IMG/VR virus record: IMGVR_UViG_3300014039_000032
Location: 6,209 to 70,208 of that record
Reading direction: 5' to 3' (one strand)
Length of the DNA stretch: 64,000 nt
From: a virus
Lineage: Duplodnaviria > Caudoviricetes
Each line of letters begins with the position of its first letter. Within the stretch, counting starts at the first letter, position 1. Shown here piece after piece: positions 4,925 to 52,411 of this stretch. Made by a program: the position numbers and the translations under genes. Under the pieces are notes generated by a model. That model was not told where the DNA came from. It searched no databases and saw nothing but the letters and a program-made list of their open reading frames with translations.

Positions 4925-4953
4925 TTGACAATCCTCCTCTTGTGTGGTATCAT
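4925..4953 (+). promoter_or_regulatory. sigmaA-type promoter of dnaE
   Basis: TTGACA-N17-TATCAT with extended -10 TG. Confidence 0.75.
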
Positions 4954-4984
4954 GACGGTACTATATGAGAGGAGGTTTTGTATT

Positions 4985-8841: not shown

Positions 8842-9128
8842 CAATGAGGCTGATTGACGCGGACGCCCTTGGAGTGGGAAGATGTAGCAGAGACATTCTT
8901 CCAGCGATGTATTGCGCTGGTTGGAATGGTTTACTTGGCATTTTAGAAAAAGCAGATACCGTCGACGCTGTGATCGTGACGAGGTGTAAGGATTGCCGAA
9001 GCTCTCGCGAGCTGAACCGAAACGACAGGCTGGAAGACAGTTATGCCGAAGGCGTCTTATGGTGTATGAATCAGTCTAATGGCGTATGGCCGGACGATTT
9101 TTGCAGCTACGGTGAGCCGAAGTGTTGA
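8838..9128 (+). CDS. Hypothetical phage protein (MRLIDADAL...VxxxRCKDC family)
   Basis: Family-typical termini recalled from Clostridial phages; FCSYGE C-terminus. Confidence 0.65.
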   Translation: MTMRLIDADALGVGRCSRDILPAMYCAGWNGLLGILEKADTVDAVIVTRCKDCRSSRELNRNDRLEDSYAEGVLWCMNQSNGVWPDDFCSYGEPKC

Positions 9129-9153
9129 CAAGCATTTGTCGGTATGATATAAT
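9125..9153 (+). promoter_or_regulatory. sigmaA-type promoter
   Basis: TTGACA-N17-TATAAT with extended -10 TG. Confidence 0.8.
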
Positions 9154-9229
9154 ATTAAATGCCTATAAGGCAGAAAGTAAGGATATGAAAATATGGGGAT
9201 TGCAGTCAAGAATTTTCAAAAAAAAGTTC

Positions 9230-9258
9230 TTGACAACGGTATCTGGATGTGATATAAT
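9230..9258 (+). promoter_or_regulatory. sigmaA-type promoter of HNH gene
   Basis: TTGACA-N17-TATAAT with extended -10 TG, A-tract upstream. Confidence 0.8.
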
Positions 9259-9264
9259 CTATAA

Positions 9265-9356
9265 TAGAGGTTGAGATAAGGTTGCAAACTTTCTCATTTA
9301 GGACAACGTGCTTACTCCGCGTTGTCCACTCTAATAAAAATTTCTTGAGTAAGGAG
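9265..9356 (+). ncRNA. Candidate cis-regulatory leader RNA (3-way junction plus SD-sequestering pseudoknot)
   Basis: TAGAG/CTCTA closing stem; TGAGA/TCTCA hairpin with GCAA loop; GGACAACGTG/CGCGTTGTCC hairpin whose loop CTTACTC is complementary to GAGTAAG (9347-9353), which overlaps the SD. Confidence 0.55.
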
Positions 9357-9364
9357 AATGTAAG

Positions 9365-9928
9365 ATGGAAGAAATCTGGAAAGATGTTGTTGGATATGAG
9401 GGTTTATACGAGGTAAGTAATCTTGGTAATGTGCGTAGCTTGTTTCGGTACAAGAAACAACTCAAGTGGAACGTCTTGAGTTCTGGCTATGCGACTGTTC
9501 AACTTTTCAAAGAAAAAGTTGGTACAAGATTGCTTGTACATCGACTTGTCGCCAAGGCATTCTTACCCAATCCAGATGGATTACCGGTCGTCAACCACAA
9601 AGACGAGAACAAATTAAATAATAGCGCGGACAATCTTGAGTGGTGTACTCAACAGTACAACTTAGCTTATAACGACGGGCATAGAAAAAGAGCCGACAAC
9701 ACGCGCTGGTTCTATGATGAAATGAGTGTAAGGTTCAAAGAAAATAATCCCGCTATAAAATTGCCAGTCGTTCAGATGAGTTTGTCTGGCGAATTTATAA
9801 AAGAATGGCCAAGCGCCAAAGATGCAGTTGTTGCGCTTGGCTATAAATCAGACCATATCTGTGAATGTTGCAAAGGGAAACGAGAGACATCTAATGGATT
9901 TAGATGGAAATATAAGGAGGTAATTTAA
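9365..9928 (+). CDS. Free-standing NUMOD4-HNH-NUMOD1 homing endonuclease
   Basis: EIWKDVVGYEGLYEVSNLGNVRS (NUMOD4), VHRLVA..F, VNHKDENKLNN..NLEWC (HNH), C-terminal SA..A..LG..I..CCKG (NUMOD1). Confidence 0.9.
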   Translation: MEEIWKDVVGYEGLYEVSNLGNVRSLFRYKKQLKWNVLSSGYATVQLFKEKVGTRLLVHRLVAKAFLPNPDGLPVVNHKDENKLNNSADNLEWCTQQYNLAYNDGHRKRADNTRWFYDEMSVRFKENNPAIKLPVVQMSLSGEFIKEWPSAKDAVVALGYKSDHICECCKGKRETSNGFRWKYKEVI

Positions 9929-10575
9929 TTGGGGTAGCTGTTTTGATTCTTGGTGAATCTGGCGCTGGCAAGTCGGCATCCATGCGTAACTTCGCGGAGA
10001 ATGATGTCCGCATCCTGAACGTGGCGTCTAAACCGCTGCCGTTCAGAAACGTCAACAAGCTCAAGAAAGCTGACAAGGCAACCTATGGCATGATTCGTGG
10101 CGCTGTCACGAGTGGCCAGACGTTGAGCTATGTGGTAGATGATGCTCAGTACCTCATGGCGTTTGAGAGCTTTGACAAGGTGAATGAAACAGGATATGGT
10201 AAGTTCACCACTATGGCCAAGAATTACGAAGAGATGTTGAGATGTATTCAGGAGGATACGCCGCCTGACACTATTGTCTACGTCATGCAGCACGTGGATG
10301 TTGACGAGAATGGCAAAGTAAAGGCCAAGACTCTTGGTAAGATGCTTGACCAGCAGCTCACGGTTGAGGGCTTGTTCACGATTGTTCTGCTTGCCAAGGC
10401 TGATGAACGCCGCCATTATTTCATCACCCAGTCTGACGGCACGAATCCGTGCAAGTCGCCGATGGGAATGTTCGACGAAGTTGAGATTGACAACGACCTC
10501 AAGATGGTCGATGACACCATCAGAGAATATTATGGGCTGAAGAAAAATACTGCGCCAGTCAAGGCGAGTAAATAA
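9928..10575 (+). CDS. AAA/P-loop ATPase (Sak4-like recombination family); probable ATT start
   Basis: Walker A GESGAGKS, VVDDAQY, KAKTLGKML; frame extends to ATT 9928, 7 nt after AAGGAGG. Confidence 0.75.
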   Translation: MGVAVLILGESGAGKSASMRNFAENDVRILNVASKPLPFRNVNKLKKADKATYGMIRGAVTSGQTLSYVVDDAQYLMAFESFDKVNETGYGKFTTMAKNYEEMLRCIQEDTPPDTIVYVMQHVDVDENGKVKAKTLGKMLDQQLTVEGLFTIVLLAKADERRHYFITQSDGTNPCKSPMGMFDEVEIDNDLKMVDDTIREYYGLKKNTAPVKASK

Positions 10576-10601
10576 AATTTTTGAAGCGAGGTTGAAGCGT
10601 A

Positions 10602-15007: not shown

Positions 15008-15036
15008 TTGACATCCTCCTTATGGTTTGGTATGAT
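15008..15036 (+). promoter_or_regulatory. sigmaA-type promoter
   Basis: TTGACA-N17-TATGAT with extended -10 TG. Confidence 0.7.
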
Positions 15037-15067
15037 TGTGATATCAAATCATAGGGAGGTTTTGTTT

Positions 15068-15331
15068 ATGAGCTACAACGAGTGGCTGACTGAGGTTTGT
15101 AAGCACACCGAAGACTTGATGGATTGCACTACGCAAATTTATGGATATGGCGTTCGTCTTAAATTCAAGCCGTTTGGCACAATACTTTGGTCGATGATGT
15201 TCGAGGAAAGCTGGCTTGGCGAGGAATATAATCTCTACGCCAATCCCAAAGCTACGGCATACAACATGGCCATCCTCGTTCGCCGTGAATGGTGGAAGGT
15301 CATCTCCAGAAAGGACGAACACAATGATTGA
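15068..15331 (+). CDS. Hypothetical protein
   Basis: GGAGG SD; downstream of promoter at 15008. Confidence 0.6.
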   Translation: MSYNEWLTEVCKHTEDLMDCTTQIYGYGVRLKFKPFGTILWSMMFEESWLGEEYNLYANPKATAYNMAILVRREWWKVISRKDEHND

Positions 15332-51566: not shown

Positions 51567-52316
51567 TTAATTATTCTCGATGTAATAAGATAGCCCCAAA
51601 TCCTTAAAACGGTCAGGAATCTTGTTTGTTCTCAACCAATTCCGCATAGTTTCATCTTTAACATTATATTTTTTCGCGCAATCTTTTACACAATCAAACA
51701 CAATGCCATCACAAACACATTTTCGTGCGGTTGGATTTTTACCGCCATCATATTTTCCTTTATGAGAGAGAGATAATTTTTCCTTCGTCTCTTTAGATAA
51801 ATGCTTGCCATACATATGGTTTTCTTTGCCCACGTACTTGCCTTTTTTAGCTTCAGACATCTTTTTACGAGATTCTAAAGAATATTTATTGCCTCTTTGG
51901 GCTTCCGCCATTTTTCGTTTGGTTTCATCTGTTCTTTTCTTGCCATAGTTAGGAGACTGCTGGCCAGTTTTCCCATATAAAGGATGGTTCTCACCAGAAC
52001 AGAATTTTAATCTGGCTCTTCGAGCTTTCTCCCAATCTTCAGCAGAAACGTTGTAATGGCGGCCATTTGCATCTACATTTGTGCACATGAAGTGCCAAGC
52101 AATTTGAGCTTCTCTGCACTCTGGGTTTTCCATTGCAAACAATTTATGCGCCTCATAGTGTTCAGTCCCCATTAAATCAATTAGATTTTCTTTATCGTCA
52201 GTCCCACCAAGCGATTTCATCATAATATGATGTCTTTCTTTGTATCCTTTATAATTCTTGTCAACAAAACGCCCTCGCGTGTCTAAAATGTTTTGAATAA
52301 ATTCGTTGTAAGTCAT
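51567..52316 (-). CDS. Free-standing HNH endonuclease with NUMOD3 repeats
   Basis: ERHHIMMKSLGG.D..ENL..L...EH..AH; repeated GKKRTDETKRKM / GKHLSKETKEKLS. Confidence 0.85.
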   Translation of the reverse strand: MTYNEFIQNILDTRGRFVDKNYKGYKERHHIMMKSLGGTDDKENLIDLMGTEHYEAHKLFAMENPECREAQIAWHFMCTNVDANGRHYNVSAEDWEKARRARLKFCSGENHPLYGKTGQQSPNYGKKRTDETKRKMAEAQRGNKYSLESRKKMSEAKKGKYVGKENHMYGKHLSKETKEKLSLSHKGKYDGGKNPTARKCVCDGIVFDCVKDCAKKYNVKDETMRNWLRTNKIPDRFKDLGLSYYIENN

Positions 52317-52325
52317 AATCTAAGT

Positions 52326-52403
52326 CCTCCCAAACTTAAATTTTATTTGAGCAGTAATCCAATTGTGGGAGCAATCAGAAACACCCGTCGATGCTGTCCT
52401 GCT
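52326..52403 (-). ncRNA. Candidate cis-regulatory leader RNA (same architecture as 9265-9356)
   Basis: AGCAG/CTGCT closing stem, AGCATC-GACG-GGTGTT hairpin, TCTGATTG/CAATTGGA hairpin with loop CTCCCA complementary to TGGGAG in the SD. Confidence 0.55.
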
Positions 52404-52411
52404 TTATAAAC

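Follow-up and report, generated by a model that had tools for sequence, protein, structure and literature searches.

Among the selfish genes of phages, homing endonucleases are the commonest, and phage tolerance of them is only partly understood. Structures that sequester the ribosome-binding site limit translation of I-TevI, I-TevII, I-TevIII, segB, and mobE of Aeh1; the T-even examples are plain hairpins that share neither family nor sequence, and since a late promoter sits within the structure, only read-through transcripts can form it (PMC2988022). Here, we report a leader RNA that likewise includes the Shine-Dalgarno sequence (SD) of a phage homing endonuclease gene in a cis RNA structure. 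It differs from the T-even hairpins in being a conserved three-way junction with a predicted kissing loop, portable among unrelated endonuclease genes, and in its promoter arrangement: the only promoter-like site lies upstream of the first helix (P1), and a promoter scan called none between the third helix (P3) and the SD. Long-range pairing between a loop and the SD also controls initiation in the preQ1-II and SAM-II riboswitches and in the rpsO (S15) and alpha-operon leaders, which respond to a defined ligand or protein and serve metabolic or ribosomal genes; here, in contrast, neither ligand nor partner is indicated, and Rfam holds no match. The HIV-1 dimerisation initiation site, a kissing loop of the retroviral genome that serves packaging, shares with our leader a purine-flanked, 6-nt self-complementary sequence in a hairpin loop, whose variants keep self-complementarity, but the present loop lies in a phage mRNA, and its dimerisation is putative.

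The int-alpA RNA motif (RF02996) is also a small structured RNA of phage-related contexts, with no known function, but neither the leader described here nor eleven variant loci matched it at E <= 10. Searched against Rfam 15, the whole window (the 64,000-nt stretch analysed here) gave no match at gathering thresholds, and positions 9000-9600 together with the 11 variant loci gave only chance-level, unrelated matches at E <= 10. A first-pass annotation of the window, made from the letters alone, could assign the leader to no named RNA family, and this agrees with our searches: no Rfam 15 family matches, known small ribozymes included. A description of the leader was not found in the literature, although it might sit among the thousands of unnamed candidates in PMC8040213. 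The kind of control proposed below, ribosome-site sequestration, is known; what is new is the RNA family, with its kissing loop and its palindrome.

The window covers bases 6209-70208 of an IMG/VR virus record that is 70.2 kb long and has an estimated completeness of 94%. Among the proteins of the phage are a DnaE-type polymerase (Pfam) and a terminase that is closest to those of Enterocloster bolteae phages (38% identity); it probably infects gut Clostridia as a virulent phage. Nucleotide searches found no close relative among a named phage collection. In a syntenic relative (L084:2-3175), the DnaE-type polymerase has an apparent intein-like insertion (...CFTADELV ... VHNC) that is absent from the polymerase of the window. 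The gene behind the leader (9365-9928, + strand) encodes a free-standing homing endonuclease of 187 aa with NUMOD4, HNH_3, and I-HmuI-like NUMOD domains (Pfam; PHROG 59).

The ~100 bases preceding the endonuclease gene form a structured leader (all features on the + strand). A perfect sigma-70-type promoter at 9230-9258 (TTGACA at 9230-9235, a 17-nt spacer, and TG-n-TATAAT ending at 9258) scored 12/12 plus the TG extension in the promoter scan, with transcription predicted to start around 9264-9266, at the base of P1. A three-way junction follows (9265-9333), closed by P1 (UAGAG at 9265-9269 with CUCUA at 9329-9333). Within it, P2 (9272-9296) pairs 9272-9280 with 9289-9296, leaving one bulged U, and carries the 8-nt loop GUUGCAAA (9281-9288) with the palindrome UUGCAA at 9282-9287; P3 (9301-9327) is a 10-bp hairpin with one G.U pair (9301-9310 with 9318-9327), supported by the per-sequence folds, and its 7-nt anti-SD loop CUUACUC (9311-9317) is the exact complement of GAGUAAG at 9347-9353, as can be read directly in the sequence. 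The A/U-rich, single-stranded linker AUAAAAAU (9334-9341) separates P1 from a small hairpin, P4 (9342-9358), in which UUCUU (9342-9346) pairs with GAGAA (9354-9358) around the loop GAGUAAG. The SD AAGGAG (9351-9356) lies half in the P4 loop and half in the P4 stem, and the AUG start codon of the endonuclease is at 9365.

The minimum-free-energy fold returned the P1-P2-P3 junction (-28.3 kcal/mol, z = -2.7; 2 of 200 shuffles folded as well), and a perfect upstream complement of at least 7 nt to the SD region was found for only 3 of the 65 SD-bearing genes in the window. In the window genome, a covariance-model search found a single copy of the leader. The order described in the first pass, a promoter followed by a closing stem and two hairpins, was borne out by sequence reading and, for the junction, by the fold. 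The same holds for its 10-bp hairpin with a 7-nt loop complementary to GAGUAAG over AAGGAG, for which the covariation given next is decisive.

Relatives were collected with pattern scans based on the conserved P2 loop, with two covariance models (R1 and R2), and by searching whole related records; the 30 distinct leaders so obtained all come from contigs of uncultured phages, mostly of the human gut. The first, found by a protein-guided scan, were two syntenic phages whose enzyme is 78% identical to that of the window and whose leaders have a different P3 stem with the loop CCUAUAU and the partner AUAUAGG. Each of the 30 leaders folds individually into the same junction, and nearly all are preceded by a promoter of the identical type. 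In the alignment of all 30 (A3), 94.1% of cells are standard pairs (74.7% after shuffling), both-sided changes occur in 27/28 pairs, and none of 500 shuffles matches the observed values; controls with slid partners were 30-57% paired. All five P1 pairs have changed on both sides (e.g., UGAGG/CCUCA, UAAGG/CCUUA, and UAUAGG/CCUAUA), and covariation extends to 7/7 pairs of the P2 stem and all nine modelled pairs of P3. Because A3 was fitted on P1-P3, covariation in these helices leans towards the model. The loop-SD helix, which was absent from the model used to build the alignment, is 94.2% paired, with compensatory changes in 6/7 pairs.

The loop and its partner occur in ten sequence versions, every one complementary: besides CUUACUC/GAGUAAG of the window and CCUAUAU/AUAUAGG of the syntenic phages, these are CCUCCA/UGGAGG, CUUACCU/AGGUAAG, CCUAUU/AAUAGG, CUCGUCU/AGACGAG, CUUAUCU/AGAUAAG, CUUACAU/AUGUAAG, CCUAUUC/GAAUAGG, and AAACUCC/GGAGUUU (P3 loop/partner). 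The first-pass annotation had named a lack of covariation among homologues as grounds for giving up its reading; covariation was instead strong in all four helices across the 30 leaders. As a single clade of related phages supplied the sequences, the conservation derives in part from shared ancestry. Comparative sequence evidence nonetheless strongly supports the leader as a real, conserved, cis-acting RNA structure.

Among the sequences searched, the leader family is limited to one clade of gut phages. Model R2 found no copy near ~90 HNH loci of other phage groups or in the Enterocloster phages PMBT24 and CB473P3, Thomasclavelia phage TR-TP1, and record MT835520; its weak matches in these four were rejected as ordinary hairpins beside A-rich ribosome-binding sites. 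A pattern scan of bacterial genomes gave chance matches only.

Since the partner strand lies within the P4 loop, its contact with the P3 loop would be a kissing loop that buries the whole ribosome-binding site. A per-sequence script found a P4 stem of 5 to 8 bp around the partner strand in every variant but L132 (e.g., AAUCUU/GAGAUU, AUUCUU/GAGAAU, AUCUA/UAGAU, AUCUUUU/AGAAGAU, and AAAAUCUU/GAGAUUUU), and its outer pairs covary. In L132, the most divergent leader, the script gave 2 bp and a separate fold gave an 8-bp stem with a 9-nt loop. Covariation of P4 on the columns of A3 was not significant, because a shift of 2 to 3 columns leaves its all-pyrimidine and all-purine strands pairing equally well and because several variants are one column out of register. 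Alone, P4 folds with -2.1 kcal/mol, and it is the weakest part of the structural model. In most variants, the loop-loop helix covers only 1 to 3 nt of the SD core. The division of the SD between the loop-loop helix and the P4 stem explains why loop pairing alone covers the core in part, and full burial therefore depends on P4.

The leader likely holds endonuclease production low by masking the ribosome-binding site, and we consider it probable that the whole is best explained as a portable leader RNA of HNH cassettes, in which SD burial by a kissing loop attenuates translation. Transcription from the strong, host-type, early promoter would begin at the foot of P1 and yield an abundant transcript, which would fold into the P1/P2/P3 junction, the A/U-rich linker, and the small P4 hairpin. 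The 7-nt loop of P3 would then pair with the 7-nt loop of P4 in a kissing-loop pseudoknot, so that the 5' half of the SD is taken up by the loop-loop helix and the 3' half by the P4 stem. To reach the SD, the 30S subunit would have to compete with this fold, keeping translation of the endonuclease low while the promoter could still feed downstream phage genes. Repression would be partial, not absolute: the kissing helix (-4 to -9 kcal/mol) is similar in energy to SD:anti-SD pairing (about -9 kcal/mol), which points to a brake and not to a full block. The linker, A/U-rich across all relatives although variable in length and sequence, could serve as a ribosome standby site. Simple SD masking does not account for the conservation of the junction or of the palindrome in the P2 loop.

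The P2 loop has the form N-[6-nt palindrome]-N in all 30 leaders, with UUGCAA in most and UAGCUA, UGUACA, or UGCGCA in the rest; the inner positions of the palindrome change compensatorily, and no shuffle out of 500 had a covariation score as high as the observed one. A GNRA cap, as read in the first pass, does not survive the comparison: the 8-nt loop of the window is replaced by GUAGCUAA, GUGUACAA, or GUGCGCAC in relatives, which keep the palindrome and not GNRA. Adjacent bases cannot pair within one loop, so pairing between two RNA molecules is the simplest reading of such a self-complementary loop kept by compensatory change, and two leaders would probably pair tip to tip through their P2 loops; a dyad site acting at the DNA level is the weaker alternative. 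A tentative extension, for which we would claim no more than a modest chance, joins both contacts in one device, in which the intramolecular P3-P4 kiss would lock the ribosome-binding site and the intermolecular P2-P2 kiss would dimerise leaders. How much endonuclease is translated would then vary with the concentration of leader transcripts or with cross-talk between different endonuclease cassettes in one phage, and selfish genes would be under a dosage or compatibility control made of RNA alone.

The same features would suit a regulated switch, in which a small molecule, a host or phage protein, or P2 dimerisation stabilises or opens the kissing complex and so times synthesis. Besides the palindrome kept by compensatory changes in 30/30 leaders, this reading draws on the conserved junction nucleotides (G after P1, UUUA before P3, and A after P3) and on the similar energies of the kissing and SD:anti-SD helices, which would leave the fold poised. 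The invariant unpaired positions in the alignment, however, are a handful of junction nucleotides only, which seems less than a typical ligand pocket would need; the genes concerned are without exception selfish nucleases rather than genes of metabolism, and no candidate partner protein was identified. We regard a switch as rather unlikely. The first pass had offered ligand or temperature sensing as one option; nothing we found points to a ligand pocket, few unpaired positions being conserved, or to a response to temperature.

Attenuation by a portable leader agrees with the distribution of the leader over genes. All complete ORFs behind the leaders encode HNH endonucleases, of at least three PHROG families (59, 3377/374, and 99). 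A nearly invariant leader (type B) precedes four different endonuclease ORFs of three PHROG families, and the window type precedes two other, unrelated enzymes in contigs L096 and L097. A 95%-identical relative of this phage, L106, has a second promoter-leader, 92.6% identical to window positions 9219-9367, in front of a different enzyme; this extra cassette (L106:1320-2120) encodes an HNH_3/AP2-type endonuclease and lies between P-loop and SSB-like genes (compared with window positions 10557-10601). The mobile unit would thus be promoter, leader, and gene together, with the leader not tied to one protein, and the presence/absence polymorphism places the left edge of the cassette ~11 nt upstream of the -35 box.

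At the other end of the window cassette, an SD (AAGGAGG) and the likely start of a P-loop ATPase gene lie within and just after the last codons of the endonuclease (9928-9945), and the cassette would in this way supply expression signals for its neighbour. This overlap of the next gene's start with the 3' end of the endonuclease gene would also fit a 5' stabiliser or insulator, whereby the junction protects the transcript of cassette and downstream gene from 5'-end-dependent RNases and SD masking is secondary. P1 begins at the predicted transcription start, and in one relative the leader directly follows the 3' end of a tRNA, whose processing would make P1 the 5' terminus. A stabiliser would have no need, though, for a loop that tracks the SD of each gene through ten versions, and we hold it to be improbable as the main role.

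Autoregulation, in which the encoded endonuclease binds its own leader, was also among the first-pass proposals. It has a DNA-level precedent in I-TevI, which represses its own promoter (PMC2988022), but near-identical type B leaders stand before four ORFs of three PHROG families, and the enzymes behind the L096 and L097 leaders are unrelated. A leader that stands before at least three unrelated HNH families and moves with its promoter as a cassette makes autoregulation by the gene's own product unlikely, and we assign this reading very little probability.

Least probable of all, and nearly dismissed, is chance complementarity beside an ordinary hairpin or terminator, or an element acting as DNA (a recombination handle or a protein-binding dyad): the identical promoter-leader module before different genes does suggest recombination within the module, and P2 with its loop is a near-perfect DNA palindrome, but compensatory changes in four helices, the long-range loop-loop pairing included, are a signature of RNA structure, and no T-run follows P3. 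P3 was not called by a terminator scan and was rejected as a terminator. As the genome is intron-rich, a group I intron fragment was considered as well and was rejected: the endonuclease gene has its own promoter, its flanks are separate genes, and there is no Rfam intron or ribozyme match.

A second HNH gene of the window (51567-52316, - strand), between the terminase and portal genes, had been credited in the first pass with the same architecture in a different sequence. Its 95-nt leader (52317-52411) is without a promoter of its own, has only a 6-nt complement (CUCCCA/UGGGAG; found in 5/65 window genes) that lies outside any hairpin loop, and has no significant fold (z = -1.6), and neither R1 nor R2 matched it. 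On its fold, the position of the complement, and the covariance models, we rejected it as a family member. Close relatives of this second gene were not found (best, 33% identical). What remains of the proposed shared off-switch is an SD-occluding leader common to free-standing endonuclease genes of related phages; the part that joined it to the second HNH gene falls away.

If the proposed attenuation is correct, homing endonucleases gain a defined, portable RNA control module in which a promoter is joined to a three-way junction and to a kissing loop that covers the ribosome-binding site. This gives a testable model in which endonuclease genes are kept harmless while a strong promoter serves neighbouring phage genes. 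The leader is a new candidate for RNA family catalogues, its palindromic loop is a rare possible case of phage mRNA dimerisation, and it could be a compact natural part for translation tuning.

Several smaller observations concern the surroundings of the cassettes. In the window, the cassette promoter is preceded, ~100 nt upstream, by another perfect promoter (9125-9153), which is followed by a small hairpin, AGUAAGGA. Two short ORFs on the + strand (9193-9252, 19 aa; 9185-9274, 29 aa) run into the cassette promoter and P1. The start of the 19-aa ORF, MGIAV, resembles IGVAV at the start of the P-loop gene (about 9931), a likeness by which the cassette may have inserted just inside the 5' end of the P-loop gene and regenerated that end. 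Several type B cassettes, in L083, L085, and L089, are preceded by TGAGTAAGTAA upstream of the -35 box, so that each of the three frames is closed by a stop codon immediately ahead of the A/T-rich stretch that precedes the promoter. The leader at L091:9757-9861 (- strand; the same locus as L133) directly follows the CCA end of a tRNA gene and is without a promoter; its P1 (UAUAGG/CCUAUA) and P2 loop (GUAGCUAA) are both unlike those of the window. At L098:1198-1200, the endonuclease start codon is ATT, not ATG, and the leader is otherwise intact.

Elsewhere in the window, three near-consensus promoters on the + strand (at 2663-2727, 4925-4984, and 15008-15069) have an anti-SD run just after the -35 box (ATCCTTCTGTCT, ATCCTCCTCT, and CCTCCTTATG, respectively), and each run pairs with an SD ~45 nt downstream in hairpins that reach 19 bp. 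At these sites, read-through transcripts would be masked, whereas those initiated at the promoter itself would stay open. The arrangement corresponds to control of the T4 I-TevI/soc/e type, here on host-type promoters, and one of the three genes encodes the DnaE-type polymerase.
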